A stretch of 20,844 nt of DNA from Candidatus Xenobia bacterium (lineage in GTDB: Bacteria > Vulcanimicrobiota > Xenobia > Xenobiales > QWHO01). The notes beneath the pieces were generated by a model. That model had not been told where the DNA came from and ran no database searches. It worked only from the letters and a program-made list of their open reading frames with translations. A program made the translations under genes and the position numbers. Below, piece after piece: positions 2-18,083 of the stretch; position 1 is the stretch's first letter; every line of letters starts with the position of its first letter. The stretch covers positions 1 to 20,844 of the forward strand of contig BTUM01000116.1 in the NCBI GenBank assembly GCA_045863235.1, read 5' to 3'.

Positions 2-496
2 TTCGCGCCCCCGGCGCCGGCGGCTGACTTCGGCCAGTCCAGCTTCGCGCCCCCGGCGCCCGCGGCTGACTTCGGCCAGTCCAGCTTCGCGCCCCCGGCG
101 CCCGCGGCTGACTTCGGTCAGTCCAGCTTCCCGGCCCCAACGACCGACTTTGGCGCTCCCGCGCCTGCGGCCGACTTCGGTCAGTCTGGTTTCCCGGCCC
201 CGACGACCGACTTTGGCGCTCCCGCGCCTGCGGCCGACTTCGGTCAGTCTGGTTTCGCATCCCCAACCAGCGACTTTGGCGCTCCCGCGCCTGCGGCCGA
301 CTTCGGCCAGTCGGGTTTCGCATCCCCAGCGAGCGACTTTGGCGCTCCCGCACCGGCGGCCGACTTCGGTCAGTCCGGCTTCCCCGCCCCAACGACCGAC
401 TTTGGCGCTCCCGCGCCGGCGGCCGACTTCGGCCAGTCCGGCTTCCCCGCCCCAACGACCGACTTTGGCGCTCCCGCGCCGGCGGCCGACTTCGGG
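2..496 (+). repeat. Coding tandem repeats: 3 x 42 bp (FAPPAPAADFGQSS), then ~6 x 63 bp (FPAPTTDFGAPAPAADFGQSG)
   Basis: 42-bp units start at 2, 44 and 86. 63-bp units start at 128, 191, 254, 317, 380 and 443 (last one partial). Unit lengths are multiples of 3 and most differences are synonymous. Degenerate [DE]FG copies continue to ~1340. Confidence 0.93.
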
Positions 497-3400
497 TCCA
501 GTTTTCCCCCCCCGGCGCCTGCGGCCGACTTCGGCCAGTCCAGCTTCCCCCCCCCGGCGCCGGCCTCCGACTTCGGCCAGTCCGGCTTCGCCGCCCCCCC
601 GGCGACCGACTTCGGCCAGTCTGGCTTCGCCCCCCCGGCGGCCGACTTTGGCGCTCCCGCGCCGGCGGCTGACCTCAGTCCATCTCCGGCGGCCGAGTTC
701 GGCTCCTCCTTCGGTGTCCCCCCGGCGGACTTCGGCGCCCCGCCAGCAGCCGATTTCGGCTCCAGCTTTGGTGCCCCTCCGGCGGCCGAATTTGGCTCCA
801 CCTTCGGGGCCCCGACCGGCGAGTTCGGCCAGGCCACTTTCGGCTCCACTGAGCCGGTAGCCGAGGCGCCTGCCAGCGACTTCGGCTCCCCCTTTGGCGC
901 CACGCCCACCTCGGACTTCGAAGCCGCTCCCTCCGCCTTTGGCGCGCCTTTTGGCGAGAGTGGCTTTGGTGCTCCTCCCGAGGCCTCCGCGCCGCCCGAC
1001 TTCGGATTCAACGCTCCTCCCGCGAGCGAAGCCGAGTTTGGCTCCTTCCAGATGCCCTCCGTTCCGGGGGCTGACGCGGCTGTGCCCGAGGCCCCCTTTG
1101 GCGGTCCCACCGGCTTTGGGACCTTCCCTGAAGTGGGTGAGCCAGGCGGCTTCTCGGGTGGCTCCACCTTTGGCGAGCCCGGTGAGGTTGCGCCCGCCAG
1201 TCCCGAGGGCTTTGCTGCCGACAACACCTTCGGCGCGCCCTTCGGGGCCGAGTTCACCGCGCCCGAGTCGGCCTTCGACTCCGAGCCTGCTGGCCCGGCC
1301 CAGTTCGAGTCCGAGCCGGCCGAAGTGGCCTTCGGAGACAACCCGTTCGCCACGTCCGCCGCCCCCGCCATGGACTTCCAACTCGACCTGCCTCCACTGC
1401 CTGTCGTGCCTCTCGTGCCCCCGGTCACCGAGCACGGTCCGGCCGCTGGTCAGCTGTGGAGTCCTCCGCCTCTGCTCTATCTCAAGGACCAGGCTCTGCG
1501 CGACAGCATCAAGGGTCAGCTCGAGCTGCCTCCCAACTCTGGCGTCTTCGCCTGGGAGCCCCTCCCGCGCGTGGACAGCGCTTATCTCGAGGAGGTGGCT
1601 GCCCAGCACCAGATCATCCTGAAGGCCAGCAAGCAGGCCGCGGCCATGCCCACCCCGGGCAGCTGGGCCGTGGGCTCGGCCTTCGGCGAGAGCTCTGCTG
1701 CCGTTTCGGGCGGCAGCTTCCTCGAGCGCGTGCAACTGGCCGGCGGCCGTAAGGCCGAGGCGGCTGGAGGCGCCGCTCGCAGTGTCGAGGGCGGAACTCT
1801 GGCCGAGCGCCTGGCCGCCCGCCAGAAAGCCGAGCAGGAGGCCGCTGAGGCGGTCCATCCGGAGTTGCTGCCCCCGCAGGTGGAGGCCCCTCTCGAGCTG
1901 TCCGTGCCCGAGGTCGCGCCCGAGCTGGCTCTGGCTCTGGAAGTGCCTCAGCTGGAAGTCCCCCAGCCCGAGCCCCTGGCCCTCGAGCTCCCGTCAGAGC
2001 CCGTCGTTCTCCAGGAGCCCGAGCCCGAGATCCCGCAGCCCGAGCCTGAGCCGGAGCCCGAGCCCGAGGTGCTCGTCTCCCTCAGCATCGAGCAGGAGTC
2101 TCCCGCCGACCACGTGGCCCGCAGCCAGGAGATCCGCAACCAGGCTCAAGATCTGGATGTCACCACGGCCATCAACCTCTACCGCCGGGCCATCGAGGAG
2201 CAGCCCGAGAACCTCGTGCTGCGCACCGACCTGGCCGACATCCATATGAACTATGGCCTGCTCGACGACGCGGTGGTCCAGTACCGCCAGATCGTCATGC
2301 GCAAGCCCCAGTCGGTCAGCCTGCGGCACAAGCTGATTCAGGCTCACCTTTGGAACGACAACTTCGACGAGGCGGCGGCGACTCTGATCGAGGTGGCCGA
2401 CATCCTGATCGAGCACAAGATGAACCAGGAAGCGCTCGACTCCCTGCAGATCGTGCTCAGTCTCGACCCGCACCATTTCGAGGCTCGTCACAAGCTGGTG
2501 GACCGCTTCAACCAGATGGGTCAGAGTAATCTCGCGGCCCACCATCTGCGCCAGCTGGCCGAGGGCGCCCTCACCAAGGGCAACGTCGAGCTGGCCATCA
2601 GCGCGTTCAACCAGCTCATGGAGATCTCCGACGATCCCAGCCTGGAAGATCGCCTGGCCCAGGTCTACGAGTCCCAGGGCAATCAGGAAGAGGCCCTGCG
2701 CCACCTGCGCAACCTCAGCCATCGCTACCAGGAAGCGCAGCGCTGGGAGGACGCGGCCAACGTCACCGAGCGCATCATCGCCCAGGACCCCGACAACCTG
2801 GAGATGCGCCGCAGCCTGATCGCTACCTACGAAGGGCTCAAGTGGCACGACAAGGTGGTTGCCCAGCAGTTCGAGCTGGCCAACTTCTACTATCGCCAGG
2901 GCGACCTCAACCAGGCCCTGGAGCTTTTCGAGACCGTGGTCCAGAGCCGTCCGGACTTCCACGAGGCCCGTCGCGGCCTGGCCGACGTTTACCTGGACGT
3001 GGGCCGCATCGAAGAAGCCATCAAGCACACCGACACGTTGACCCAGCACTATCTGGCCACCATGGATCACCAGACCGCCATCGCGCTCTACGCGCGCCTG
3101 GTGGATGCGCTGCCCGAGAACACCGAGTTGCGCGAGAAGCTGATCAAGTTCTACGAGGTCGCTCAGGACCCGCAGAACGCCCTGGCCCAGTGGCTGATCC
3201 TGGCCGAGTTGCACGAGCAGAACGCCCGCCACGAGCAGGCCGTCACCGCCTATCGCAAGGCGCTCGACCTGGACGAGTCGCGCGACGACCTGCACTATCG
3301 GCTGGCCCTGCTCTACTCCGACCCGCTCTCCAATCCGACCGCAGCTCTGCAAGAGCTGCAGCGCGTGCACGAGCTCAACCCCGGGCACGTGGACGCCATG

Positions 3401-3961
3401 GAGCGCTACGTGCGGATGCTGCTCGCCTCTGGCAAGGCCAAAGAGGGCTCGGAAGTCATCTTGAAGCTGGAGAAAGCCAACAAGAACGGGGCTCGCGTGC
3501 GCCAGTCCGTGCTCGACGAGTTCCGAGACAAGATCGAGGCCGATCCCACCGACCTTCGCACTCGTTTCACCTATGGCGAGACCTGCTTCCACCTGCAGGC
3601 CCTGGACATGGCCATCGAGCAGTTCCAGTTCACCCGCCGCGATCAGGCTTACGAGCTACCTTCCTACAACATGCTCGGGATGTGCTTTGCCGAGAAGACC
3701 GGCTTCAACATGCTCGACCTTGCGATCAAGCAGTTCCGCAAGGGCCTCGAGACCAAGGGCCACTCCGAGCAGGACTATCTGGAGCTTCGCTACAACCTGG
3801 CCATGCTCCAGTACCGCAACAATCGTCTCCAGGAAGCTCTGCAGGAGCTGAAAGACTGTTATGCGGTGGACATCGCCTATCGCGACGTGCGCGAGTGGAT
3901 ACGCCGCATCGAGTCCGAGATCGCCGGTGGACCCAAGGTTCCGCCCAGCCGCTTGAAGTAA
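2..3961 (+). CDS. Large TPR protein (5'-partial, at least 1319 aa): FG-repeat low-complexity N-terminal region, Glu/Pro linker, TPR solenoid, SgmX-like C-terminal TPR cap
   Basis: I translated the frame of ORF 1052..3961 back to base 2 without meeting a stop (FAPPAPAADFGQSSF...), so the real start lies upstream of the window. TPR-like helical pairs run from ~2110 (e.g. AINLYRRAIEEQPENLVLRTDLADIH). The protein ends ...LRYNLAMLQY...CYAVDIAYRDVREWI. Confidence 0.9.
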   Translation, partial: FAPPAPAADFGQSSFAPPAPAADFGQSSFAPPAPAADFGQSSFPAPTTDFGAPAPAADFGQSGFPAPTTDFGAPAPAADFGQSGFASPTSDFGAPAPAADFGQSGFASPASDFGAPAPAADFGQSGFPAPTTDFGAPAPAADFGQSGFPAPTTDFGAPAPAADFGSSFPPPAPAADFGQSSFPPPAPASDFGQSGFAAPPATDFGQSGFAPPAADFGAPAPAADLSPSPAAEFGSSFGVPPADFGAPPAADFGSSFGAPPAAEFGSTFGAPTGEFGQATFGSTEPVAEAPASDFGSPFGATPTSDFEAAPSAFGAPFGESGFGAPPEASAPPDFGFNAPPASEAEFGSFQMPSVPGADAAVPEAPFGGPTGFGTFPEVGEPGGFSGGSTFGEPGEVAPASPEGFAADNTFGAPFGAEFTAPESAFDSEPAGPAQFESEPAEVAFGDNPFATSAAPAMDFQLDLPPLPVVPLVPPVTEHGPAAGQLWSPPPLLYLKDQALRDSIKGQLELPPNSGVFAWEPLPRVDSAYLEEVAAQHQIILKASKQAAAMPTPGSWAVGSAFGESSAAVSGGSFLERVQLAGGRKAEAAGGAARSVEGGTLAERLAARQKAEQEAAEAVHPELLPPQVEAPLELSVPEVAPELALALEVPQLEVPQPEPLALELPSEPVVLQEPEPEIPQPEPEPEPEPEVLVSLSIEQESPADHVARSQEIRNQAQDLDVTTAINLYRRAIEEQPENLVLRTDLADIHMNYGLLDDAVVQYRQIVMRKPQSVSLRHKLIQAHLWNDNFDEAAATLIEVADILIEHKMNQEALDSLQIVLSLDPHHFEARHKLVDRFNQMGQSNLAAHHLRQLAEGALTKGNVELAISAFNQLMEISDDPSLEDRLAQVYESQGNQEEALRHLRNLSHRYQEAQRWEDAANVTERIIAQDPDNLEMRRSLIATYEGLKWHDKVVAQQFELANFYYRQGDLNQALELFETVVQSRPDFHEARRGLADVYLDVGRIEEAIKHTDTLTQHYLATMDHQTAIALYARLVDALPENTELREKLIKFYEVAQDPQNALAQWLILAELHEQNARHEQAVTAYRKALDLDESRDDLHYRLALLYSDPLSNPTAALQELQRVHELNPGHVDAMERYVRMLLASGKAKEGSEVILKLEKANKNGARVRQSVLDEFRDKIEADPTDLRTRFTYGETCFHLQALDMAIEQFQFTRRDQAYELPSYNMLGMCFAEKTGFNMLDLAIKQFRKGLETKGHSEQDYLELRYNLAMLQYRNNRLQEALQELKDCYAVDIAYRDVREWIRRIESEIAGGPKVPPSRLK

Positions 3962-3976
3962 CGGAGAGAGCGTACC

Positions 3977-8425: not shown

Positions 8426-8436
8426 CATCACTTCCA

Positions 8437-9441
8437 ATGTCTCCGTCCCGAACCCTGGCAATGGCTGGCTGGCAGCGTCGTTTACTGGCGCTGTCCCTGG
8501 TTGTTTGGCTCAGCCAGAGTCCCGCCCTGGCAGAGGAAGGCGCCGTCAACAGCCTGACGCCGCACCTGGACACGCTCTGGCTGGCCCTGTACGTCCTGCT
8601 GGGGGCGCTGGTGGCGCTGATTCTCTGGGAGGTCATCGATCGGATGCCGCGCCGCGTGAAGATCGACGCCGCCGTGGCCTTGCCGGAGCCTGAGAACGAC
8701 TACATCGACCCCACCAAGATGAAGTTTGCCGAGCCTGCCAGGCCTGCCGCCCCCGTGCCCACGAGTTTCGCCCCCCCGCCGCCGCCCGCCGAGCCGATGG
8801 CTCGGCCCCCGGCCGCTCCGCCGCCGCCGCCCGCTGCAGACGACGACAATCCTTTCCGCAAGCTCTCCAAGCTCGGTGGCGAAGACGATTCGCCCCTGGC
8901 TCCGGCTCGGCCCCCGGTGCCTCGCAGCGAGCCGGCCAGCATTCCCGTGCCGGCTGCTCCCGCGCCCTCGCCTGCCTCCTCGGGGCTGGGCGATTCCGGG
9001 GGGAGCTCGGGGGGATGGGCTGACCTGCTTCAGCGCGTGCGCGCCGGCGAGCCCGGCAGTGGCAGCGCCAGCGAAGACTCCGGCAGCATGCCAGGCCGGA
9101 GCGCCATGCCTCCCATGACCGAGGTGGAGTCGGCCCCCTCCTCGAGCACGGCCGCCTGGGAATCGCTGCTCAAGAAGTCGGCCAACGATGTGGGGCCGGC
9201 TCCCGATACCTCGACCGTGGGCGGGGGCGATTTTCAGCCACGCTCCATCAAGCTCGGTGGGGGCGGGGGCGAGGAGGCTCCGGTGGTGGATCCCCTGCGG
9301 ATGGCCCTGGACAACCCGTCCTCCGACCCGGACGAGAACCTTCCCGATTTCGTCAAGAAAGCGACCCGCACGATCGCGCTCGATCTGAAGAAGGGTGGCG
9401 AGCAGACGCCTCCGCCGCCGATGCCCAAGACGGAGGGCTAG
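8437..9441 (+). CDS. Hypothetical single-pass membrane protein: signal peptide, one TM helix, Pro/Gly/Ser-rich disordered tail
   Basis: RRLLALSLVVWLSQSPALA|EE resembles a Sec signal with an A-L-A cleavage site. LWLALYVLLGALVALILWEVI is a TM helix. The gene fills the gap between neighbours (11 nt and 6 nt). Alternative ATG at 8461. Confidence 0.8.
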   Translation: MSPSRTLAMAGWQRRLLALSLVVWLSQSPALAEEGAVNSLTPHLDTLWLALYVLLGALVALILWEVIDRMPRRVKIDAAVALPEPENDYIDPTKMKFAEPARPAAPVPTSFAPPPPPAEPMARPPAAPPPPPAADDDNPFRKLSKLGGEDDSPLAPARPPVPRSEPASIPVPAAPAPSPASSGLGDSGGSSGGWADLLQRVRAGEPGSGSASEDSGSMPGRSAMPPMTEVESAPSSSTAAWESLLKKSANDVGPAPDTSTVGGGDFQPRSIKLGGGGGEEAPVVDPLRMALDNPSSDPDENLPDFVKKATRTIALDLKKGGEQTPPPPMPKTEG

Positions 9442-9447
9442 GTATCG

Positions 9448-10374
9448 ATGGCGGTTACCACGGAGGCAGGCTTGGAGTTACCCAAAGGAAATCCCCTCAT
9501 CGAGGACATCGCGCTGCAGCATCACGACGTGAGCGAGATGCTCAACAACCTCGAGCAAGACGAGTTTACCGGCTACGTCAAGTTCGAGGCAGCCGGTAGC
9601 CTGCGCGGCTATTTCTTCTTCAATCACGGCACCATCTTTCGGGCCGTGGAGATGGAGCGAGCCGACGCCACCCCCATCGTCCGCATGGTTCCGCGCTTGA
9701 TGAACCGCACCAAGTCCTACCATGAGGTCTCCACCTCGAGCTACGTCATGTCTCCGAGGCTGGTCAACGTGCTGGGCTCCATGTTCGCTTTCAAGCCCCT
9801 CTTCATCGATTATGAGGTCAAGCGCAAGGAGCTCAAGAAAGTGCTCGGCAAGATCGAGCAGGACGAGTACTCCGGCATCATGCGCGTGCAGCTTCCCGAC
9901 GAAGCCGTCTTCCTCTTGATGGAGCGGGGCACCCCTGTGATCGATCAGTTCGCCAAGCGCTACGGAGACGTGCTGTGCGGCACCGAGGCGGTTTCCAACC
10001 TGCTCGACTACATCCACAAGAACGGCTCCACCATCCAGGTGCACGTCGAGAAGGCGGGCGAGATCGAGTATCGCGTCAAGCGGATCGAGGAGGACCTGGA
10101 CAAGATCAAGCAGTTGATCGTCAAGAACGACGCCGGCTTCCTGCGTGCCCAGGACATCGTCAAGGTGGCCGAGGAGATCGTGCGCGACTGGGGTTACGAT
10201 CTCAAGTCCACCTTCACCGTCGAGATGGAGACCTCCACGGGCCAGATCTTCGAATACAAGTGCCAATCCGGCAAGAAGCTGGCCGGCTACGTTGGTCTGC
10301 ACACCAACATGATGAAGTCCATGGGTTTGAACGAGGGCGACGTGGTCAACATTCGTCCCCTCAGCGCCTCCTGA
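9448..10374 (+). CDS. Tandem PATAN/DUF4388/DUF2226-like domain protein (possibly RomY/co-GAP-like) with a C-terminal CDC48-N/double-psi-barrel-like segment
   Basis: Internal duplication: PLIEDI..DVSEMLNNLEQDEFTGYVKF..GYFFFNHG versus PLFIDY..ELKKVLGKIEQDEYSGIMRV..VFLLMERG. The C-terminal VGLHTNMMKSMGLNEGDVVNIRP resembles the 'lgl.eGD.V.i.p' strand motif of CDC48_N-type barrels. The CDS is solid; the family label is recalled, not searched. Confidence 0.7.
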   Translation: MAVTTEAGLELPKGNPLIEDIALQHHDVSEMLNNLEQDEFTGYVKFEAAGSLRGYFFFNHGTIFRAVEMERADATPIVRMVPRLMNRTKSYHEVSTSSYVMSPRLVNVLGSMFAFKPLFIDYEVKRKELKKVLGKIEQDEYSGIMRVQLPDEAVFLLMERGTPVIDQFAKRYGDVLCGTEAVSNLLDYIHKNGSTIQVHVEKAGEIEYRVKRIEEDLDKIKQLIVKNDAGFLRAQDIVKVAEEIVRDWGYDLKSTFTVEMETSTGQIFEYKCQSGKKLAGYVGLHTNMMKSMGLNEGDVVNIRPLSAS

Positions 10375-10375
10375 G

Positions 10376-11632
10376 CTGAGCCGCTCTGCGCGCAGCCTGC
10401 TGTTCCTGGTCCTGGTGCTGGGCGTCCTGCTGCGGGTCAGCCTGTTCGAGCTGGTTCCCCGGGCCACCGTAGGCGACATCTACCACCACGTCCTGCTGGC
10501 CAGCAACCTGCTGCAGGGGCACGGCTACTCTCACAGTCCCGCCCCACCCTACTACCCCGACCTGCAGCGCCCACCGGCCCTGCCCCTGGTGCTGGCCGGC
10601 GCCCTCGCCCTCAGTCAGCTCAGTGCGGTTCCCGCGCCCATCTTGATGCTGGTGCTGCAGACCGCCCTCGACCTCGGCACCGGCCTGATCCTCTACCGGC
10701 GCCTGCGCCAGCTGGCGCCACAACTCGCTTTGCCGGCCCTGGCCCTGTACCTTCTGAGTCCCTATCCGGCCTTCTTCCCCAGCCTGGCCCTGACCGAGTG
10801 CCTGGCGGGCTTTCTGCTCATGGCCACCCTGGATCGGGCTCTTGTCCTGGCCAGGGCTCCCACCGCCGGGGGGGCGGCTCTGTTGGGCTCCCTGGCTGGC
10901 CTTTTGATCCTGACCCGCCCGGCCCTCTTGCCGGTGGCGCTGCTGGCCCTGCTCGCCTCGCGTCGCCAGCTCCCCCTGGCCCTCTTGACCTGCGCTCTGC
11001 TCTTGCTACCCTGGACCGTGCGCAACGCCACCGTTCCGGGTGGGCGTCCCACCCCCATGCTGGTGAGCGGCATGGGCATCACCCTCTGGTTCGGGGTGAC
11101 CTTCGACGGTGGGGTCCACCTGACCGGCCGCCCTCCTGCCGGCGAGGCCGAGTTCCAGCGTTACCTTCTCCAGTGGCGTCGCGGCCAGGACCTGCCTCCC
11201 GAGGAGGTCATGGCCATCGATCGACAGCTTTCGGCTCTGGCCGTGCAGGCCATCCGGAGCAACCCGGCCGCCTACCTGGCTCACGTCGTGGCCCAGGCGG
11301 GCCGGCTCTGGTGGGCGGCCGACGACGGCCTGGTCAACTACGATGCGGCCCGCGTACCCCCGGAGCGCCTCCAGCTCCTCTATGTGGTCTCTCAGACCTG
11401 CCAGCGCATCCTGGTGGTCCTGGCGGCCGGGGGGCTGCTGGTGGGGGGGCGCAGACTGTGGCCCCTCTGGCTGCTGCTGGCTGTGGTCAGCCTGCCCTAC
11501 TGCCTCATCCACGTCGAGGCCCGCTACCTCCTGGCGCTCGAGCCCGTGCTGGCGGGTCTGGCGGCAGCCTTTCTCTGGTGGCTGAAGGAAACCCTCACTC
11601 GAGCGAGAACCCGGAATCAATCCGCGCGCTGA
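10376..11632 (+). CDS. GT-C fold polytopic glycosyltransferase (ArnT/PMT/GT39-like)
   Basis: Many hydrophobic helices plus motifs RPPALPLVLA (cf. RxPGYPLFLA), LTECLAGFLL, LTRP, LLPWTVRN and EARYLL. The ORF track starts at GTG 10415. An in-frame CTG at 10376, 1 nt after the upstream stop, would complete the first TM helix (SRSARSLLFLVLVLGVLLR). Confidence 0.75.
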   Translation: MSRSARSLLFLVLVLGVLLRVSLFELVPRATVGDIYHHVLLASNLLQGHGYSHSPAPPYYPDLQRPPALPLVLAGALALSQLSAVPAPILMLVLQTALDLGTGLILYRRLRQLAPQLALPALALYLLSPYPAFFPSLALTECLAGFLLMATLDRALVLARAPTAGGAALLGSLAGLLILTRPALLPVALLALLASRRQLPLALLTCALLLLPWTVRNATVPGGRPTPMLVSGMGITLWFGVTFDGGVHLTGRPPAGEAEFQRYLLQWRRGQDLPPEEVMAIDRQLSALAVQAIRSNPAAYLAHVVAQAGRLWWAADDGLVNYDAARVPPERLQLLYVVSQTCQRILVVLAAGGLLVGGRRLWPLWLLLAVVSLPYCLIHVEARYLLALEPVLAGLAAAFLWWLKETLTRARTRNQSAR

Positions 11633-11667
11633 ATGCGAGACGCGGCTTTATTTGTGAGGGGAAGTCT

Positions 11668-12024
11668 TTGTCCGAACTGGCCAGAGTGCTGGAAAACTTT
11701 TGTCGCCTGGATGGGGTGCAGGGTGCCCTCATTTTGAGCGCCGACGGGGCGCTGGTGGATAACCATGCCCCCTCCGTGGGCGAGCTGGAGCCTCTGGTCC
11801 GGCTCGTTTCCCAGAGCCTTTCTCTGGGACGGCAGGCGGCCGACTCGCTGGGGAAGTCGCCCGTGAATCACCAGTATCTCGAGTTCGCGCACATGCAGAT
11901 CACCTCAGAGATTTTGAAAAACCAGAACGTCCTGGTGGTTTGCGCCAAGACCGGTGCCAATCTTGGCCGAATCCGTTTGGAGATCAAGAAGACCAAGCCC
12001 GACGTTGAGAAACTGCTCGGGTAA
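11668..12024 (+). CDS. Roadblock/LC7 domain protein (MglB/MglC-like), 118 aa
   Basis: The true gene is the 3' end of track ORF 10798..12024: TTG at 11668 preceded by a GAGGGG SD. Sequence LARVLENF..LDGVQGALILSADGALV...LVVCAKTGANLGRIRLEIKK matches the Roadblock/LC7 pattern. Confidence 0.85.
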   Translation: MSELARVLENFCRLDGVQGALILSADGALVDNHAPSVGELEPLVRLVSQSLSLGRQAADSLGKSPVNHQYLEFAHMQITSEILKNQNVLVVCAKTGANLGRIRLEIKKTKPDVEKLLG

Positions 12025-12041
12025 ACGAGAGGGACGCCAGC

Positions 12042-12419
12042 TTGCCGAAGAAAGTCTTGATAGTCGACGATGAGCCTCACATTGTCGAAGTTGTCCGGGT
12101 GTGCCTGGAGGACTCGGGCCTCGAGCTCATGGAGGCCGCGGATGGAGAGCACGCACTCGATTTGACCCGGCAGGCCCATCCCGACCTGGTCATTCTGGAC
12201 GTGATGATCCCCAAGATGGATGGTTACGCCGTCTGCCGTGAGATCAAGGCCGACCCCGCCACCCGCTCCATCCCGGTCATCTTGCTGACCGCCAAGGGTC
12301 AGGCAGCCGACATCGAGGAAGGCCAGCAGGCCGGTGCCGATTCCTACCTGACCAAGCCCTTCAGCCCTCTGAAGCTACTGGCCGAGGTCTATCGCCACCT
12401 CAGCCTGGGGATTCCGTAA
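12042..12419 (+). CDS. Single-domain response regulator (receiver only, CheY-like)
   Basis: KVLIVDDE acidic pocket, PDLVILDVMIPKMDG with the phospho-acceptor Asp, ILLTAK, and GADSYLTKPF. TTG start with a GAGAGGG SD. No output domain. Confidence 0.95.
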   Translation: MPKKVLIVDDEPHIVEVVRVCLEDSGLELMEAADGEHALDLTRQAHPDLVILDVMIPKMDGYAVCREIKADPATRSIPVILLTAKGQAADIEEGQQAGADSYLTKPFSPLKLLAEVYRHLSLGIP

Positions 12420-12430
12420 ACCGCCCAGCG

Positions 12431-13966
12431 GTGGCCATCCGCGAAGGCGAGCGCCGTTCCCGCGACCAGCTCGTAGCCCTCTACGAGATCGGTCGAGCTC
12501 TCAACTCGACCCTCGAGTTAGGCGAGGTGCTCTCCCGCATCCTGGACATGCTCTTACCCCTCTTTGAGGCCGAAGCCGGCTCCATTATGCTGGCCGAGGA
12601 GGATGTGCTCACCATCGGCGCCGCCACCGGCCTCTCCCCCGAGATCATCGCCCGTACCCGGGTCAAGCGGGGCGAGGGGATCGCGGGCTGGGTGGCCCAG
12701 ACCGGCGAGCTGTTGCTGCTCAACGGCAAGGTGACCGACCCGCGTTTTACTCACCTGGTGGAGCGGCCCGACGAGATCACCTCTTCTCTGTGCGCCCCGC
12801 TGCGCCATCGCGAGCAGATCACCGGGGTGCTCATGCTGCGCCGCAGCGAGCCGTCCAGCTTTACCGTCGACCAGTTGGACTTCTTCCAGTCGGTGGCCGA
12901 CCAGGCTGCCCTGGCCATCGAGAATGCCCGCCGGGTGGAGCAGGTCGAGCGCGAGCGCCAGAAGTCCGAGGCCATCTTGCGCTCCATGGCCGACGGCGTG
13001 CTGGTGACCGACGCCAACGGCCTGATCGTGCACGCCAACCCCGCGGCTCTCAGCCTGTTCGGTCCCAACCTGACCGACCGGCAACTGCCGGGCCTGATTC
13101 CCAACCTGGCTTATCAGCACATTCTCGGTCAGGTGGCCCGGGGCCGGCCCTACGAGAGCGAGGTGCGGGTGGGTCCCGAGCAGCTCTTGCGCGTCAGCGT
13201 CACCGCCCTGGGCCTGGCCGAAGGCTCGCCCGAGGGCCTGGTCCTCTTGTTCCATGACGAGACCGAGCGAGCCCGCATCGAGCGCATGAAGTCCGAGTTC
13301 TTGTCCATGGTCAGCCACGAGCTCAAGACCCCCATCACCACCATCCAGGCTTTTCTCGAGCTGTTGATCTTCCGCGAGTTCCCCCTCGAGCGTCGGCGCC
13401 ACTTTCTCGAGATCAGCCTGCAGGAAGGCCGACGCCTGCAGAAGCTGATCGAGGACATCCTCGAGCTTGCCCGCATGGAGTCTGGTCGCTTCCGGCTCCA
13501 CAAGTCGCGTTGTCAGTTCCAGGATCTGGTGCGCTCCGTCCTGCCCGGCTTTGTGGAGCGCTTCCCGCTGCACAGCTTCGTGCTCGAGGCCGGGGCTGGT
13601 CTGCCCACCCTGGAGGCCGACCCCATGCTCTTGACCCAGGTGCTGACCAACTTGCTCTCCAACGCCGTCAAGTACTCGCCCGACGGGGGCGATGTGCGCG
13701 TCAAGGTCGAGGCCAGCGGCGATCGGCTCATCTGTTCGGTGTCCGACCAGGGAATCGGCATCGAGAAGGATAAGATTCCCTATATCTTCGAGAAGTTCTA
13801 CCGTGTGGACAACTCGCTTACCCGCGAGACGGGCGGCACCGGGCTCGGCCTGGCCAACGCTCGCTACATCGTAGAAAGTCACGGCGGCTCGATCTGGGCC
13901 GAGAGTGAGCCGGGCCGGGGCACCACCTTCACGGTGGCGCTTCCGCTCCAGACCAGTGAGGTGTAG
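12431..13966 (+). CDS. Cytoplasmic sensor histidine kinase, GAF-PAS-HisKA-HATPase_c
   Basis: GAF (GEGIAGWVAQTGE...SSLCAPL...ADQAALAIENAR); PAS (ILRSMADGVLVTDANGLIVHANPAA); H-box SHELKTP; N-box NLLSNAVKYS; G1 DQGIGI; F-box IFEKFYRV; G2 GGTGLGLA. No TM helix. Confidence 0.95.
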   Translation: MAIREGERRSRDQLVALYEIGRALNSTLELGEVLSRILDMLLPLFEAEAGSIMLAEEDVLTIGAATGLSPEIIARTRVKRGEGIAGWVAQTGELLLLNGKVTDPRFTHLVERPDEITSSLCAPLRHREQITGVLMLRRSEPSSFTVDQLDFFQSVADQAALAIENARRVEQVERERQKSEAILRSMADGVLVTDANGLIVHANPAALSLFGPNLTDRQLPGLIPNLAYQHILGQVARGRPYESEVRVGPEQLLRVSVTALGLAEGSPEGLVLLFHDETERARIERMKSEFLSMVSHELKTPITTIQAFLELLIFREFPLERRRHFLEISLQEGRRLQKLIEDILELARMESGRFRLHKSRCQFQDLVRSVLPGFVERFPLHSFVLEAGAGLPTLEADPMLLTQVLTNLLSNAVKYSPDGGDVRVKVEASGDRLICSVSDQGIGIEKDKIPYIFEKFYRVDNSLTRETGGTGLGLANARYIVESHGGSIWAESEPGRGTTFTVALPLQTSEV

Positions 13967-13969
13967 CCC

Positions 13970-15394
13970 ATGCTGACGACCGACGAGTCCAACCAGACCG
14001 CGCTCGAGTCCATGATCGAGCGCTTTCGCGCCGTTCTGGTTCAATCGCCTCAGAATCCCACCGTGTTGCTTGGCTTTGCCGAGGCCAACCTGCGTCGGGG
14101 CCGCCGACTGGAGGCGCTGCAGGCTTACCAGAAGGTGCTCGGACTCACTCCCGACGTGAGCGACGCCCACCTGGCGGTGGCCGAGATCTATCTGCTCCAT
14201 GGACTGCCCCTGGAGGCCTATGAGGAGCTGCGCAAGGTCTTCGAGATCGAGCCCGGCCGCCCCGAGGCTCACCTGTTGCTGCACGAGATTGAGCCCCTGG
14301 CGCCCGTTCCCCACGCCCTGGAGTACCTGCGGGCTCGTTTTCCGACCGAGTTGCAGGTCGCCGAGACCCGCTCGCGCCTGACCCTGGAGGTCGAGCACCT
14401 GGTGCGCGAGGTGGAACAGCTGAAAGAGACGGGCGAGGGTCCCAACTCCGAGCCCGTGGCCGCCTACCACCTCGAGCAGGCCCGCAAGCGCCTCAGTCGC
14501 ACCCAGCACCTGCTGAGCCTGCTGGAGACCCTGCCCCTCTACAGTGGCGAGCCCGAGATGCCGCGGCCGGGCGCCATGCATCCAGGCGACACCGAATCTT
14601 ATGACGCTCAGCCCGAGATGCCCGACCACTCCATCGGGGAGACGGGCTACGAGACCCAGGAGCTGCTCGAGCCTTCCTACGAGACTCCCGTGCTCGAGAG
14701 CGAGCCGGCCTACCAGGTCTTTGAGCCCGTGCCAGAGCTCGGCCAGGAGCCCGAGTCAGAGTTCGGCCAGGAGTCCGAGCCAGAGCTCGAGCCTCGAGAG
14801 GACTCCGAGTCCTACGAGGAGTTGGCCCCCGAGCCAGAGGCTGCCGGTGAGAGTGACATCGAAGACTTCTTCCAGAGCCTGGCCCTGGGCGGCGAGCCTG
14901 AGTCCGACGAGGTGGCAGAGTCGGAGCCCGAGCTGGTGCAAGAGTCCGAGCCGGTGGCGACCGAGCCCGAGCCCGTCCTCGTCGAGCACACCGGGCCTGC
15001 TGGTCTTTCGCCCGAGCGCGTGAGCTACTACGAATCCATCGCCCCCGCCATGCGCGAGGCAGTGGACGATCTCTTGCGCACCCGCGGGCTGACCTCCATC
15101 TTCGTGGTCTCCTCCGACGGGCACGTGGTGGCCCACCAGTCTCGTGACAGTGTGACTCCCGAGCAGATGGGCGAGCTGGTGCTGCAGATCCAGAGCTGTC
15201 TGCGCGAGTTCGGCAACGAGCTGGCCTACTGGGCCCTCGAGTGCGAGGGCGGCATCGTGCTCTTGCAGCAGCTTGACGAGCGCCACGGTCTGGTGGCCGT
15301 GGGCCAGCCCGGAGCCAGCTTCGCCATGATCCGCCTCAACCTCGACAGGGCCCGCCCCCGGCTGGCCGAGCCCCTGGCCTCTGCTCCCGACTGA
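13970..15394 (+). CDS. TPR + acidic Glu/Pro linker + C-terminal Roadblock/LC7 fusion protein
   Basis: N-terminal TPRs (EALQAYQKVLGLTPDVSDAHLAVAEIY). An E/P/S-rich linker spans ~14550-14990. From ~15050 the sequence is Roadblock-like: MREAVDDLLRTRGLTSIFVVSSDGHVVA...LVAVGQPGASFAMIRLNLDRARPRLAE. Confidence 0.85.
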   Translation: MLTTDESNQTALESMIERFRAVLVQSPQNPTVLLGFAEANLRRGRRLEALQAYQKVLGLTPDVSDAHLAVAEIYLLHGLPLEAYEELRKVFEIEPGRPEAHLLLHEIEPLAPVPHALEYLRARFPTELQVAETRSRLTLEVEHLVREVEQLKETGEGPNSEPVAAYHLEQARKRLSRTQHLLSLLETLPLYSGEPEMPRPGAMHPGDTESYDAQPEMPDHSIGETGYETQELLEPSYETPVLESEPAYQVFEPVPELGQEPESEFGQESEPELEPREDSESYEELAPEPEAAGESDIEDFFQSLALGGEPESDEVAESEPELVQESEPVATEPEPVLVEHTGPAGLSPERVSYYESIAPAMREAVDDLLRTRGLTSIFVVSSDGHVVAHQSRDSVTPEQMGELVLQIQSCLREFGNELAYWALECEGGIVLLQQLDERHGLVAVGQPGASFAMIRLNLDRARPRLAEPLASAPD

Positions 15395-15395
15395 G

Positions 15396-16931
15396 CTGAG
15401 CACTCTGGAAGCGCGCCTGAGCGCGCTCTACCTCGGGGCGCTCCGGCTGGCGGTGCTGGGGGCCCTGGTGTTCGTGGTGTTCTTCCCGGCCATCCCGGCC
15501 ATCGACCTCTGGTTCTGGAACCCCGCCGCTCCGGGAGCCCAGGCGGTCCGGCTGAACCCGCTCGGCATCCTGCTCGACATCCTGCACAACACCGACTCCG
15601 GCGGTCAGCAGGCCTCCGGCACCGGGCTGTTGCGCGGCGTGGTGCTGGTGGCCGGCGGCCTCTGGCTCATGCGGCTGCGCCGACTTCCCCCCCGGCTGGC
15701 CCCCCTGGTGCTGTGCGGCCTGGTTTTCCTGGGCGTGGCCCTGATTTCCAGCCTGCGCTCGAGCCACGTGCACGACGCCCTGCTGAGCTGGCTCGACTAC
15801 GTCGTCGTCTGGCTGGCCTTTCTGATTGCCGCTGACCTCACCTGCGAGCTCCAGCACGCCGGATGGAGCGTCTCCACCGCCCTGGCTCGCCTTCTGGTCG
15901 TCACCGCCGCCTTCGTCATGCCGGCGGCCATCGTGCGCTTCATGGTGGACGTGGGCAAGGACTACGGAGCCATGTCCGGCTCCTTCTACCAGCCAAACAT
16001 GTTCTCGTCTTATCTCGAGTTCGCGCTGGGAGCGGGCCTTGCGCTCTACCTGGCCCGCCCCCCGGGTGTCGCCCCGTCCCCATCCCCCCAGCCGCGCCCG
16101 CTCTTCAGCGCCAGCTTCTGGCCCTGGCTGGCCGGGGGCGTCCTGGTGAGCGTCATCGTGGGACTTTACCGCTCCTACTCCCAGGGCGCCTGGATCGTGT
16201 CCTGGGCCATCCTGTTGCTGGTGCTGGCCCTGCTTGCCCCCCATCGCCCCTGGCTCCGCTATCTGTTGACCTGCCTGGCCATCCTGGCTCTGGCTGCGCT
16301 GGCCGCTCTCGGTTTCCGCTCCTTCAGCCCCCTGCTGGCCCTGGCTGCGCTGGGACAACTGGCCCTGCTCTTCTGGCTGCTCCGCCCCCTGTCGCCCCCC
16401 ACCACCCTGTATCTCGTCGTGCTGGCCCTGGCCGCCTTCCTGATGGCGCGCCAGGTCGTGCCGCTGGTGGCCAAGGTCGATCCCACCGAGCGCGCCCTGA
16501 CCGTGGCCCGGGGCACCGACGTCAACGTCCACGCCCGCTTCGTCTTCTACCGGGGGGCCCTGAGGATCTTCGCTCAGCATCCCCTGCTGGGGGTTGGTCC
16601 CCAGGGCTTCCAACGCTACTACCCCCAGTATCAAGAAGACGTGATCTACTTCTCCAAGTTCAGCCACTGCATCTGGCTCACCATCTTGTGCGAGACCGGC
16701 CTGGCCGGCTTTCTGCCCGTCCTGGCGGGCACCGGCTGGGCATTCTGGATGGCCCTGCGCTGGCCCGGTCGAGCCCCCGCCCGGGCCGGGTTGCTGGCCG
16801 GCGCCACCGGATTCCTGGTCCACTCCACCTTTGACGTGCAGTGGGAGTTTCTGGCCCTACCCCTGACCCTGGCCGTGGTGGCCGGGGTGCTGGTGGGCGA
16901 GGTGGTCGAGGAGGCTCCTCTTGGCGACTGA
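15396..16931 (+). CDS. O-antigen ligase-like (Wzy_C/WaaL/O-oligosaccharyltransferase family) membrane protein
   Basis: Polytopic, with motifs GSFYQPNMFSSYL, SYSQGAW, RFVFYRGALRIFAQHPLLGVGPQGFQRYY, SHCIWLTILCETGLAG and FLVHSTFD. Track start is GTG 15453; an in-frame CTG at 15396 follows the upstream stop by 1 nt. Confidence 0.85.
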   Translation: MSTLEARLSALYLGALRLAVLGALVFVVFFPAIPAIDLWFWNPAAPGAQAVRLNPLGILLDILHNTDSGGQQASGTGLLRGVVLVAGGLWLMRLRRLPPRLAPLVLCGLVFLGVALISSLRSSHVHDALLSWLDYVVVWLAFLIAADLTCELQHAGWSVSTALARLLVVTAAFVMPAAIVRFMVDVGKDYGAMSGSFYQPNMFSSYLEFALGAGLALYLARPPGVAPSPSPQPRPLFSASFWPWLAGGVLVSVIVGLYRSYSQGAWIVSWAILLLVLALLAPHRPWLRYLLTCLAILALAALAALGFRSFSPLLALAALGQLALLFWLLRPLSPPTTLYLVVLALAAFLMARQVVPLVAKVDPTERALTVARGTDVNVHARFVFYRGALRIFAQHPLLGVGPQGFQRYYPQYQEDVIYFSKFSHCIWLTILCETGLAGFLPVLAGTGWAFWMALRWPGRAPARAGLLAGATGFLVHSTFDVQWEFLALPLTLAVVAGVLVGEVVEEAPLGD

Positions 16932-17814
16932 GCGCTCCTCCTGGAGCATCCGACCCCGGCTGCTGGTGCAGTTTGTGCTGGCCACCCTCCTCTTCGCCCT
17001 GGCCTACGCCAACTTTCTGGCCATCTTCAGCGAGGTGGCCCAGCGCAACGGACTGGCCCACGCCAACGCCCGCCACTACGACAAGGCCGAGCAGGCCTAT
17101 CGCCAGGCGCTGCTGCTCGACCCGCTCTGGGGGGAGAACTATCGCCACCTGGCCCTGCTGCTGCTCAGCCAGCTCACCCCCGAGTCCCCGGCCGAGTTGC
17201 GCCAACAGGTGTTGGATCTTTCCCAAGTCGCGGTGCGGCTCGACGGCCACCGTCCCGTCACCCAGAGCCTGCTCGGTCAGGTCAAGGCCGAGCTCGGTGA
17301 TCTGCAGGGCGCCCGCCAGGCCTATCTCAGGGCCCTGGAGCTCGACCCGGTCAACTATCCCGCCTTCTATATGGAGCTGGCCAATTTGGAGGCCCGCAGC
17401 GGCAACTCCCAGCGCGCCGGAGAGCTGCTCGAGCTCGCTCGCCAGCGCTTCCCCATCGACAGCCTGGACAAGATGCTCGACTTCCGCGCCGAGGCCATTC
17501 GCGAGCCGCTCAGCATGATCTACGCCGCTTCCGGAGCCCGTGAGAACCCCGCCCTCCACCCCGCAGCCGCCGAACCTTACTTCAAGACCGCACTGTTTCT
17601 CTACAAGAACAACGCTGACGCTCTCTTCGGCCTGGGGGTGGCCCAGCTCAGCCAGGGCCGTGTGAAAGAGGCCATCGCCTCCCTCGAGAAGGTGGACAAG
17701 CTGGTGCCCGACTTTGTCCCCTGCCTGAGCTACCTGCAGCAGGCCTACCTCGCCGACGGCCAGCGCGACAGGGCGGCGGCTGTCGGAGCGCGGCTCGAGA
17801 AGCTGCAGCCCTGA
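16921..17814 (+). CDS. Membrane-anchored TPR protein
   Basis: TTG with GAGGAGG 6 nt upstream, overlapping the previous gene by 11 nt. N-terminal hydrophobic helix LLVQFVLATLLFALAYANFLAIF. TPRs such as AEQAYRQALLLDP and ARQAYLRALELDP. Confidence 0.85.
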   Translation: MATERSSWSIRPRLLVQFVLATLLFALAYANFLAIFSEVAQRNGLAHANARHYDKAEQAYRQALLLDPLWGENYRHLALLLLSQLTPESPAELRQQVLDLSQVAVRLDGHRPVTQSLLGQVKAELGDLQGARQAYLRALELDPVNYPAFYMELANLEARSGNSQRAGELLELARQRFPIDSLDKMLDFRAEAIREPLSMIYAASGARENPALHPAAAEPYFKTALFLYKNNADALFGLGVAQLSQGRVKEAIASLEKVDKLVPDFVPCLSYLQQAYLADGQRDRAAAVGARLEKLQP

Positions 17815-18083
17815 CGATGCTCGTGGGCCGCCAGGAAGAGCGCGGAGGGCGCGGAGAGAAGTGGCCGACATCTGTTCGAGTGGTCGACTGGAAATAGCTG
17901 CGGTGTTCGATTCTTGAACCGCCGGTTCATAACCCGGCCCGAGGCCGGGGGTAACCAGCACGGGGAGCTTGCTGGACCGGGGGAGCTCTCGTGGCGCTCA
18001 ACGATCAAGCGCGGACAGGGCAGGGAAGGCCACGCACACGTCGGTAAAGTTTTTTTCAGCTCCACAAGCTAGTCTACAGTGCA

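Follow-up and report, generated by a model that had tools for sequence, protein, structure and literature searches.

A block of TPR, PATAN and Roadblock genes in the main type IVa pilus operon of Vulcanimicrobiota

Results

Gene Organization of the Locus

The window analyzed here (20,844 nt) is an entire contig of a Xenobia bacterium from a large, uncultured branch within the Vulcanimicrobiota (Eremiobacterota); a preliminary description, made from the sequence alone, had suspected a non-myxobacterial lineage, which the taxonomy check confirmed. An ORF scan of the window identified 11 ORFs, all on the plus strand, at positions 2–17814 (Table 1), with the left end of the contig falling inside g1. 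The intergenic gaps are 15, 11, 6, 1, 35, 17, 11, 3, 1 and −11 nt, and ORF positions and gaps agree exactly with the at least 11 co-oriented genes described previously, provided that CTG starts are assumed for g5 and g10; if the first GTG starts (10415 and 15453) are used, the gaps before these genes become 40 and 58 nt. The domain content reported earlier was recovered: both TPR giants, a stand-alone and a TPR-fused Robl_LC7 domain, DUF4388, a receiver, a soluble kinase and Wzy_C.

Table 1. Genes of the block, with the features or searches on which each assignment is based.
Gene	Assignment	Position	Strand	Basis or remark
g1	3' part of TPR giant	2..3961	+	C-terminal TPR array, SgmX-like three-TPR cap at end
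g2	All-TPR protein, 1482 aa	3977..8425	+	C-terminal cap same as g1
g3	Candidate membrane anchor	8437..9441	+	Hydropathy; positional orthologues of same layout
g4	Tandem PATAN (DUF4388/DUF2226-like) and double-psi beta-barrel	9448..10374	+	Structure model, PF14332 family matches
g5	Multi-pass membrane protein, probable GT-C glycosyltransferase	10376..11632	+	Start possibly GTG 10415
g6	Stand-alone Roadblock/LC7, MglB-related	11668..12024	+	PF03259, profile search
g7	Single-domain receiver, accessory	12042..12419	+	D9/D10/D53 intact
g8	Soluble GAF-PAS-HisKA-HATPase histidine kinase (H296), accessory	12431..13966	+	Domain search, hydropathy
g9	N-terminal TPR, acidic linker, C-terminal Roadblock	13970..15394	+	PF03259
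g10	Wzy_C membrane half of gene fused to g11 in relatives	15396..16931	+	Start possibly GTG 15453
g11	Membrane helix and TPR half of same ancestral gene as g10	16921..17814	+	Domain search, hydropathy

No promoter- or terminator-like site was found at 17700–18150. RNA contigs give a weak hint that the whole block forms one transcript; those from two runs end near 15,600, upstream of the Wzy_C gene. Cover in runs X9 and X10 is almost nil past approximately 16,200, which proves nothing on g10 and g11, and run X2 may contain DNA, because its cover extends to the gene downstream of the block.

The Block Continues the Main Type IVa Pilus Operon

The gene string makes up the distal section of the operon for the main type IVa pilus, and not a stand-alone Mgl-type operon. 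Upstream and in the same direction, on contigs C136 and C145, lie pilB-T-C-sigF-pilA-D-M-N-O-P-Q, the gene set expected of such an operon (pilB, pilT, pilC, pilin, pilD, pilMNOP and pilQ), with PilP assigned from position alone. Contig C145 carries pilA-D-M-N-O-P-Q and the first 867 codons of g1, which are outside the window, and shares a 44-nt in-frame overlap with the window start; the join between C136 and C145, which have no sequence overlap, was drawn from relatives. Among the 16 relatives with DNA in view, the nearest recognized gene 5' of g1 is pilQ in 13; g1 does not follow pilQ in G007, G045 and G067. The suspected pilus connection, for which pilB and pilT were to be sought and both are present in the upstream operon, is thus stronger than had been guessed, as the genes continue the pilus operon. 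One genome without the module (G076) has a pilM-N-O cluster, and such pili can therefore exist module-free.

Conservation Across the Phylum

The core of the block consists of the two TPR giants, the candidate membrane anchor, the tandem-PATAN and barrel protein, the two Roadblocks and the Wzy_C-TPR enzyme, and it very probably serves the pilus. A neighborhood check in relatives revealed conserved synteny, the order of the module being kept in most families of the phylum: of 24 loci from relatives, 22 have g6 after g4, and all 22 have g9 after these. In a sample of 201 phylum genomes, in which related genomes are not independent, we found g4 in 65, the g1 N-terminal domain in 63 and both in 61, and a g6-type Roadblock in 67; each of the three was found in 0 of 132 genomes of families f15, f20 and f21. 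The g4 gene has moved out of the operon in family f13. A two-gene cassette with only a g1-N-like TPR gene and a g4 paralogue is present in all 6 of 6 genomes of one genus, and probably arose by a single duplication event. The available parts of two publications (PMC11484240 and PMC9259500) contain nothing on this locus.

The two-component pair of the preliminary description is present, as the g7 receiver and the g8 kinase, which has no predicted membrane helix, but it is optional and not part of the core. Of 22 loci, 9 carry the pair within the block. Genomes that have lost the kinase (G007 and G017) have a decaying receiver, and family f3, with reduced genomes of 2.2–2.9 Mb, has kept the module and lost both genes. 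This persistence, together with the fixed position after pilQ, would suit an assembly or chaperone scaffold without polarity or switching, in which the TPR giants and g4 build or stabilize the motor, or select a motor paralogue, and the Roadblocks are structural. The own genome encodes one strong pilQ, whereas PilB-like frames scoring above 440 bits number seven and PilC-like frames at least 14, so that a selection of motors would be needed. We nevertheless regard such a scaffold as unlikely, because Roadblock, PATAN, receiver and SgmX-like caps are spatial-signaling parts in every studied case cited, and because of the kinase and receiver found within the block and the decay of the receiver once its kinase is lost.

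Glycosyltransferase Genes

Two GT-C enzymes had been suggested. The second, g10, matches PF04932 (Wzy_C) at 55.6 bits (cut-off 31.7) in a multi-pass membrane protein with approximately 11 predicted helices. With regard to pilin as the acceptor (PglL/TfpO type), the Wzy_C_2 match of g11 (24.3 bits) is below the cut-off of 28.5. Together, g10 and g11 form a single Wzy_C-TPR gene in 16 of the 17 relatives where it was found, and this gene closes the block in 17 of 22 loci. The Wzy_C domain, the helices and the C-terminal TPR part resemble those of Wzy_C O-oligosaccharyltransferases and O-antigen ligases; unlike these, the gene is split into two overlapping ORFs in the own genome and in G001. An assembly error as the cause of the split was rejected; an RNA-run contig shows the split as well.

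The g5 gene is not core. It is a genus-level insertion, present at this site only within its own genus (4 of 5 genomes) and missing from most relatives. Searches of Pfam and the PDB with g5 itself gave no match; a 35%-identical homologue passes PF13231 (PMT_2) with 26.6 bits against a cut-off of 26.1. Within this genus, sugar-related genes are acquired at the g4–g6 junction.

One could read the block as serving mainly surface glycosylation or envelope biogenesis, with the TPR proteins scaffolding transferases and the pilus link reflecting co-regulation. The terminal position of the Wzy_C-TPR gene and the acquisitions at the g4–g6 junction fit this reading, and the RNA contigs ending near 15,600 are a weak hint of different Wzy_C expression. 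It is most improbable, given that g1, g2, g4, g6, g9 and the g3 tail are predicted from hydropathy to be cytoplasmic, that most relatives lack g5, and that the satellite cassette duplicates the TPR-PATAN pair alone.

The TPR Giants and Their Likeness to SgmX

Including the part on C145, g1 encodes a protein of approximately 2170 aa (1174–2263 aa in full-length orthologues), with an N-terminal TPR domain outside the window, a long acidic, Pro/Gly-rich disordered linker and a C-terminal TPR array. The large TPR protein SgmX of Myxococcus has this layout too, its N-terminal TPR block being joined by a Pro-rich linker to C-terminal TPRs; g2 is without such a linker. Residues 11–200 of g1 align with positions 9–198 of the SgmX model, and the g2 cap aligns with positions 901–1014 of 1065 (E 1.9e-4; best family member 5e-14). 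The SgmX model matches 24 of 29 caps with the best E-value of any family, and generic TPR families match as often (MamA 26/29, PilW 25/29), so the similarity to SgmX appears partly generic. Cap searches of the PDB, the Atlas and a large protein set returned nothing beyond generic TPRs and proteins of the clade itself. Of the "two SgmX-like TPR giants" described before, the caps show a partial resemblance to the C-terminal three-TPR (M) domain of SgmX, and neither protein is near the family cut-off of NCBIfam NF052243 (1800 bits), g2 scoring 157 bits and the full-length g1 of G004 55 bits. We rejected an "FG scaffold" as a conserved part of the module, as had been suggested, since the number of FG per g1 linker ranges from 0 to 60 among 12 relatives and the repeats are lineage-specific.

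The Candidate Anchor g3 and the PATAN-Barrel Protein g4

The g3 protein has a signal-peptide-like start, one predicted membrane helix (residues 49–67) and a disordered tail ending in an RTI(A/S)LD motif, and matches nothing in Pfam or NCBIfam; these features make it a candidate membrane anchor. The polar hubs FimV and HubP combine long acidic disordered regions, with aromatic repeats, beside TPR domains and a membrane anchor. In contrast to these, the putative anchor and the TPR-linker protein are encoded here by different genes (g3 and g1), and a LysM domain was found in neither.

Structural modeling of g4 (pLDDT 91.5) predicts two tandem PATAN domains followed by a C-terminal double-psi beta-barrel (residues 219–306), which resembles the CDC48A N domain (Z 13.0, rmsd 2.0, 84 aligned) and takes the place of the C-terminal receiver of PatA-type proteins. 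At E ≤ 0.01, PF14332 is matched by 32 of 36 g4-family members; the own g4 reaches 24.6 bits (cut-off 25) and was missed by the genome-wide family search. The assignment to the PATAN family, which is also that of its Atlas cluster (PatA_N), agrees with the preliminary description, whereas "RomY-like" found no support: RomY's N-terminal domain (residues 8–89) matches no characterized model, and PATAN is named 0 times in the available text on that protein (PMC9481161). Looking up the clusters of distant g4 homologues yielded no informative names.

A Predicted Complex of g1 and g4

A complex model of the g1 N-terminal domain with g4 scored 0.77 (best of three controls 0.00), with at least 94% of contacts agreeing among runs and a partner pLDDT of at least 86. 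Of the solved complexes, 116 of 157 reach the mark for such scores, as do 2 of 215 mismatched pairs (rough counts, because own alignments were used); 7 of 44 neighboring-gene pairs picked blind passed it as well. The model supports binding of the g1 N-terminal TPR domain to the first PATAN domain of g4. Compared against all other residues, buried ones included, the 20 interface positions of g4 are far more conserved (entropy 0.83 vs 1.62; 0 of 20,000 random draws as low), and repeat 1 invariably carries the polar residues N15, D27 and N34, whereas the equivalent sites of repeat 2 vary. For g1, the interface positions show no greater conservation than the remainder of the domain (entropy 1.50 vs 1.61; 28% of random draws as low). 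Folded alone (pLDDT 88.0), the tandem-PATAN part gave no Foldseek match at E ≤ 0.001. The best VIA match (Z 6.2, rmsd 3.0, 81 aligned) falls in the range of common arrangements. This gives no indication that a similar solved complex underlies the score of the g1–g4 model, although one may exist.

The Roadblock Proteins

Both g6 and g9 score above the PF03259 (Robl_LC7) cut-off, and profile searches with both match MglB structures, for g6 the chains 6h5b and 6izw (E 3e-9), in agreement with the MglB relationship suggested earlier. In MglB, the small helix-2 residues A64 and G68, which bind MglA, are required for GAP action (PMC3199381), and the basic KRK face (K14, R115, K120) binds MglC (PMC10329633). 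We mapped g6 onto MglB by one HMMER alignment, which for this patch covers g6 and leaves out g9. In the 21 rows of the g6 family, the positions of A60, G61, A64 and G68 are all variable: that of A64 is Q in 6, S in 3 and A in 1, and that of G68 is Q in 10, A in 3 and G in 1. A-G-A-G is kept in 21 of 22 MglA-coupled MglBs, a set picked by a pattern that fixes neighboring positions. At the two residues mapped, the basic four-helix face is retained, with R115 in 21/21 and K120 in 18/21 of the g6 family, and R or K at these positions in 18/19 and 19/19 of the g9 family. Judged from these alignments, the stand-alone Roadblock has lost the patch by which MglB binds MglA and keeps the adaptor face.

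Search for MglA and Other Small GTPases

In the own genome (97.6% complete), no MglA was found by TIGR00231 (22 matches), by a motif scan, or by HMM scans that covered all 73,495 frames exhaustively, one with a group-1 profile of 35 sequences and one with a group 2/3-type profile; PF03029 gave just weak P-loop matches. A motif scan of viral contigs gave nothing. The group-1 profile was built, from metagenome contigs, because MglA was absent from the best 60 PDB matches of a conservon GTPase single query and the group 2/3-type profile. The latter scores the 35 group-1 MglAs at 10.8–36.7 bits.

The sample of 201 genomes yielded one real group-1 MglA (G034, E 1.6e-73), on a contig other than that of the module, and 5 other MglA-like small GTPases. 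An MglA-like match is present in 6 of the 65 module-bearing genomes, and never inside the module. Beyond the own genome MglA is to be read as "not found", its absence being unproven, since the cross-genome searches scored no more than 16 candidates per genome and missed a Rab-like 162-aa GTPase of G013 that was found via PF00025. The class-wide PF00025 search was not counted as evidence because of its insensitivity (0 of 14 controls at E 1e-9). Two matches were set aside as not MglA: a 605-aa frame of G104 from the group-1 search (E 5.7e-6) and an EF-G-like match of the group 2/3-type profile in G151.

The absence of an MglA-family GTPase from the genome, which the preliminary description had itself named as speaking against its Mgl-type reading, is thus what the own genome presents. 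For such a switch to operate, MglA would have to be encoded elsewhere (unassembled, very divergent, or as another P-loop protein), be regulated by the Roadblocks and bind the TPR caps. The caps do align with that end of the SgmX model which binds MglA, triads of PATAN, MglA and Roadblock genes exist on a Thermus plasmid, the genome is slightly incomplete and the cross-genome searches are non-exhaustive. We consider a switch of this type very unlikely in view of the exhaustive own-genome scans, the scarcity of MglA among module-bearing relatives, and the lack of the MglA-binding small residues in the unconserved GAP patch of g6.

Discussion

Taken together, we propose that these genes form a module accessory to the main type IVa pilus machine, a GTPase-free scaffold that would place and license the motor; as a whole, this mechanism seems to us somewhat on the probable side. 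Located behind pilQ in the operon of the main pilus, the genes are co-inherited. The g3 protein would tether the assembly to the inner membrane, g1 and g2 would make up an extended TPR scaffold like that of SgmX in Myxococcus, and in the model the g1 N-terminal TPR domain binds the first PATAN domain of g4. By analogy to cyanobacterial PATAN proteins, g4 may then license extension by contacting PilB, the PilC cytoplasmic domain or both, and its Cdc48-N-like barrel may offer a second docking face. The Roadblocks, probably dimeric, would be structural adaptors of the MglC kind rather than GAPs, working through the basic four-helix face. Where present, the GAF-PAS kinase and the receiver would replace the input of MglA-GTP and FrzS in Myxococcus. 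The Wzy_C-TPR enzyme would be co-transcribed but stand outside the switch, and may glycosylate pilin or another part of the envelope. We infer polar location, motility and motor binding.

The Myxococcus polarity module comprises MglA, MglB, MglC, RomR/RomX and RomY, and its pilus branch SgmX, FrzS and SopA. The block shares with the M. xanthus module the MglB-related Roadblocks, a receiver domain and the link to type IVa pili, and the N-terminal TPRs of SgmX activate pili (PMC9811614). It differs in that no MglA was found and the Roadblock GAP patch is lost, in that its parts are encoded within the pilus operon with two TPR giants, and in the addition of the candidate membrane anchor, the PATAN-barrel protein and the Wzy_C-TPR gene.

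A PATAN-family domain is also found in cyanobacterial PatA-type regulators (PixE, PixG and PilG), and these domains bind the N-terminal part of PilB1 and PilC's N-terminal domain (bioRxiv 10.1101/2021.06.11.447907). If our inference holds, both systems would exert GTPase-independent control of the pilus motor (bioRxiv 10.1101/2021.06.11.447907), and the TPR-PATAN protein pair is a possible link to that motor. Unlike the cyanobacterial proteins, g4 combines a pair of PATAN-like repeats with a double-psi barrel, lacks a receiver, is modeled in contact with a TPR scaffold and lies outside any chemotaxis-like operon. As in the PATAN(DUF4388)-MglA-Roadblock triads, one of which is on a Thermus thermophilus plasmid and which are also described in PMC4316618, the PATAN gene adjoins a Roadblock gene, but the intervening GTPase gene is missing and g4 abuts g6 in relatives.

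If true, Roadblock, TPR and PATAN parts can control a pilus without the GTPase thought central to the Mgl system, and the question of how SgmX brings PilB to the pilus machine becomes testable in a model organism. That a whole clade uses a GTPase-less MglA/SgmX-type switch (adaptor Roadblocks, an acidic and disordered scaffold and, where it occurs, two-component input), and that the TPR-PATAN contact is a general missing link for PilB loading by SgmX-type activators, is a tentative extension that we hold to be possible and rather doubtful. The proposal would also give a role to orphan MglB-like proteins, of which 328 of 749 were listed as uncoupled and none as characterized (PMC4316618). For those studied since, MglC and Snodgrassella mglB-3, the host genomes have MglA.

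Genomic context of the block

The window, which is contig C116 of the Candidatus Xenobia bacterium genome in its full length, carries eleven co-oriented ORFs (g1–g11) spanning positions 2 to 17814, and the gaps between them in the preliminary description were reproduced. Their Pfam domain content is listed in the table. The nearest named records of g4 are 97% (titled Eremiobacteraeota) and 93% (titled Vulcanimicrobiota) identical, and Burkholderiales labels on two short g4-matching contigs were taken as errors.

In the relatives G004 and G013, one contig holds pilT, pilC, a SigB/F-type sigma factor gene, the pilin gene, pilD, pilM and pilQ, followed by g1. On the G013 contig pilB is also visible, and pilN-O-P were recognised in G004 and not in G013. 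In the genome under study, contig C136 carries pilB, pilT, pilC and the 5' end of the sigma gene, and contig C145 the remainder of the sigma gene, pilA, D, M, N, O, P, Q and codons 1–867 of g1. C145 and the start of the window share 44 nt in the same reading frame; between C136 and C145 there is no sequence overlap, and they are joined by analogy with relatives only. Based on the same gene order in relatives and the overlap of C145 with the window, the block (the conserved core g1, g2, g3, g4, g6, g9 and a Wzy_C-TPR gene) forms the distal end of the main type IVa pilus operon. The gene string proposed earlier as a stand-alone Mgl-type operon is thus real and conserved, but it continues a pilus operon, in a genome without MglA, and does not form a unit of its own. 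The genome has one strong copy of pilQ and many PilB, PilT and PilC paralogues. The sigma factor gene between pilC and the pilin gene occurs in several relatives and was not seen in G030 or G010.

The MshEN c-di-GMP motif, which we take to start with Arg and to lie at the PilB N-terminus, has D or E as its first residue in the PilB of this operon (6 genomes), which hints that c-di-GMP may not be the input of the module.

RNA contigs from two sequencing runs of different studies span about positions 1,500–15,600 of the window, with the next gene scarcely covered; among those listed, there are bridges across g1/g2, g2/g3, g3/g4 and g6/g7/g8. They give a weak hint that the block is expressed and do not prove a single transcript.

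Coordinates and content of the features discussed (C, contig of the genome under study unless a relative, G, is named; L, locus)
Feature	Location	Strand	Content
g1	window 2–3961	+	TPR
g2	window 3977–8425	+	TPR
g2 repeats	window ~5530–6400	+	residues ~520–800; ~8 regular 34-residue helical repeats
g3	window 8437–9441	+	no Pfam match
g4	window 9448–10374	+	DUF4388, slightly below cut-off
g4–g6 junction	window 10375–11667		insertion hot spot
g5	window 10376–11632	+	no Pfam match
g6	window 11668–12024	+	Robl_LC7
g7	window 12042–12419	+	REC
g8	window 12431–13966	+	GAF-PAS-HisKA-HATPase
g9	window 13970–15394	+	TPR, Robl_LC7
g10	window 15396–16931	+	Wzy_C
g11	window 16921–17814	+	TPR
Repeat protein	window 18084–19739	+	551 aa; six or seven S/G-N/S/G-Y-P-S/T-N repeats; no Pfam match; outside conserved block
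Short ORF	window 19917–20330	+	CHAT protease C-terminal part only, in-frame stops upstream; probably a remnant
Open-ended ORF	window 20414–20844	+	no Pfam match
Sigma factor gene	C136:12383 to C145:453		SigB/SigF type
Sigma factor gene	L040:2057–2890		SigB/SigF type
PilB N-terminus	C136:7935–8100		MshEN motif position
Second Roadblock operon	C68:4865–11364 (L264)	-	no GTPase; 1235-aa TPR frame, 851-aa two-Roadblock frame, 115-aa Roadblock
CheW locus	C36:39687–42015		one CheW, one CheW-containing long frame
mglA-mglB pair	L260:3–1751 (G034:C187)		group 1
Rab-like small GTPase	L107:1486–1971 (G013:C6)		162 aa; Rup-like; beside kinase and receiver genes, unlinked to module
g1 paralogue	L284:7282–10107 (G007:C11)		stand-alone, 942 aa
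g1 paralogue	L285:7272–9101 (G030:C15)		stand-alone, 610 aa

Conservation across the phylum

Gene g4 is present in 40 of 41 close genomes. A sample of 201 genomes of the phylum yielded g4 in 65, the N-terminal domain of g1 in 63 (61 genomes have the two together) and a g6-type Roadblock in 67. Families f15, f20 and f21 (132 genomes) gave no match to any of the three; outside these families, 65 of 69 genomes carry g4.

Loci mapped with profiles were those of g4 in 24 relatives and those of g1 in two f13 genomes. Of the 16 loci with the DNA upstream of g1 in view, 13 have pilQ as the closest recognised gene on that side (exceptions: G007, G045 and G067). Gene g4 is followed by g6 in 22/24 relatives' loci; the order is interrupted in G030, and in G057 g4 stands alone with the remainder of the block still behind pilQ. 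All 22 loci with the g4–g6 order have g9 downstream. The junction itself holds g5 only in 4/5 genomes of the genus (G000–G003), an insert of ~4.7 kb with a sugar epimerase-like gene among its contents in G004, inserts of 2.4–2.7 kb in G034, G036 and G039, and a transposase-like gene in G030. Positional orthologues of g3 have a signal-like start, a single helix ending W-E and a disordered tail.

A Wzy_C-TPR gene lies downstream in 17 of these 22 loci, as a single fused gene in 16. The g10/g11 split is biological, because G001 (91% DNA identity, gapless) and a contig of RNA run X2 have the same split. We consider it highly improbable that the block is a glycosylation platform. Of the 22 loci, nine have both receiver and kinase, two the receiver only (with decayed motifs), two the kinase only and nine neither. 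That the block is a purely structural assembly scaffold is rather unlikely.

Search for MglA and features of the Roadblock proteins

An Mgl-type switch with MglA elsewhere in the genome had been envisaged. Exhaustive HMM scans of this genome (8.36 Mb, 97.6% complete; 73,495 frames of at least 60 aa) used one profile of 35 group-1 MglAs and another of five group 2/3-type GTPases and yielded no MglA. The best matches were a LepA-like frame (18 bits) and an Era/Der-like frame (30 bits). TIGR00231 gave 22 matches; those inspected belong to large GTPases of translation, ribosome biogenesis or other kinds, and a single frame, EngB-like, comes near 200 aa.

In the set of 201 genomes, a single real MglA was recovered with the group-1 profile; it is accompanied by an MglB (the sole group-1 pair found) and lies at a contig edge in G034 (11-kb contig). 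The group 2/3-type profile picked up five small GTPases, spread over G031 and four f13 genomes. MglA-like matches occur in 6 of 65 g4-bearing genomes, and the module itself holds none. As no more than 16 candidates per genome were scored in these cross-genome searches, which overlooked the Rab-like GTPase of G013, MglA outside the genome under study counts only as not found among those candidates. That a hidden GTPase drives the block is very unlikely.

The g6 profile matches Myxococcus MglB (E 3e-9). On this alignment, the helix 2 positions A60, G61, A64 and G68 of MglB are variable, with mostly large residues, in 21 g6 orthologues, and read A-G-A-G in 21 of 22 MglBs adjoining MglA on metagenome contigs, which were selected by a pattern fixing neighbouring positions. 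Excerpts of published work report that A64/G68 substitutions weaken MglA binding and GAP action (PMC3199381) and that the R115/K120 face binds MglC, not MglA (PMC10329633). In g6 the R115 position is invariant (21/21) and K120 is kept in 18; both positions are basic in g9. The Roadblocks thus look like adaptors whose GTPase face has been lost.

The long-frame Roadblock of the C68 operon is also found in G001, G013, G025, G030, G034, G039, G047, G049, G055 and G060, adjoined by a short Roadblock in several of them.

The TPR proteins g1 and g2

The giants had been called SgmX-like. The g1 layout is that of SgmX, and the C-terminal cap common to g1 and g2 matches the SgmX model in 24 of 29 cases (g2 cap at positions 901–1014 of 1065); however, neither protein reaches SgmX by family score, and MamA and PilW match as many caps. 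According to excerpts of PMC9811614, pilus activation by SgmX resides in its first eight TPRs, binding of the FrzS receiver in the middle ones and MglA binding in the final three. Candidate partners of the present caps may be g7, a Roadblock or the g3 tail.

The g1 linker (12 relatives) is 218–1310 aa long, acidic and mostly Pro-rich, with 0–60 FG. A short basic motif, K-P-x-L, occurs in 1–4 copies in 10/12 relatives, within otherwise unalignable acidic sequence (including the part on C145). The whole g2 protein passes the PPR model TIGR00756 (45.9 versus 20 bits). Its length, ~1460 aa in its own order against ~1150–1250 aa in other classes, suggests that the repeats have expanded.

The PATAN protein g4 and its modelled contact with g1

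DUF4388/PatA_N is matched by 32/36 g4 family members. The g4 model (pLDDT 91.5, pTM 0.85) comprises two similar alpha/beta repeats, a helix and a barrel that resembles double-psi beta-barrels such as the CDC48A N domain (Z 13.0, rmsd 2.0, 84 aligned), a fold likeness that alone says nothing of function. A search of 1.84 billion representatives gave only 34 matches at E <= 1e-30, and matches weaker than these mostly cover the PATAN part alone, so the PATAN-barrel fusion seems near clade-specific.

All 6 genomes of a genus labelled g4 have a second copy of gene g4 directly behind a ~320-aa gene that corresponds to the g1 N-terminal TPR domain only, and this pair was therefore chosen for complex modelling. 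The g1 N-domain–g4 model scored 0.77 (median, three runs), against 0.00 for the best of 3 controls; the score mark, reached by 116/157 solved complexes versus 2/215 mismatched pairs, is rough here, own alignments having been used. Contact agreement between runs was at least 94% and partner pLDDT at least 86. The model supports, and does not show, binding of g4 by the g1 N-domain. In the predicted contact, the g1 loop A50-V51-R52-G53 lies against the first PATAN repeat of g4. G53 and P90 of g1 are invariant in 18/18 rows; conservation is strong on the g4 side and does not extend to the g1 side overall. The stand-alone g1 paralogues of G007 and G030 keep the A-x-R-G loop.

Proposed mechanism and relation to known systems

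We propose that a membrane-anchored TPR scaffold presents the PATAN adaptor to the pilus motor, that Roadblock adaptors would hold the scaffold together, and that a soluble kinase may tune it in some lineages. Of this picture, the genomic linkage and the lack of MglA in the genome under study are shown, and the g1–g4 contact is modelled. The binding to the motor, the polarity and the order of signalling are inferred by analogy with SgmX and with cyanobacterial PATAN proteins, as presented in excerpts of bioRxiv 10.1101/2021.06.11.447907.

The block appears to work like the SgmX/MglC/PATAN layer of pilus control but does not belong to the Mgl module. Excerpts of PMC4316618 document PATAN genes in the vicinity of MglA/MglB as well as numerous orphan MglBs. 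Bdellovibrio has two SgmX-like TPR proteins together with MglA (excerpts of PMC11025332). In Snodgrassella, whose genome has MglA, the orphan MglB-3 influences pilus motility (excerpts of PMC11112851). The matches listed from the open-access full-text literature showed neither this module nor a TPR-PATAN complex. The CheW locus on C36 is chemosensory and could provide input to the module.
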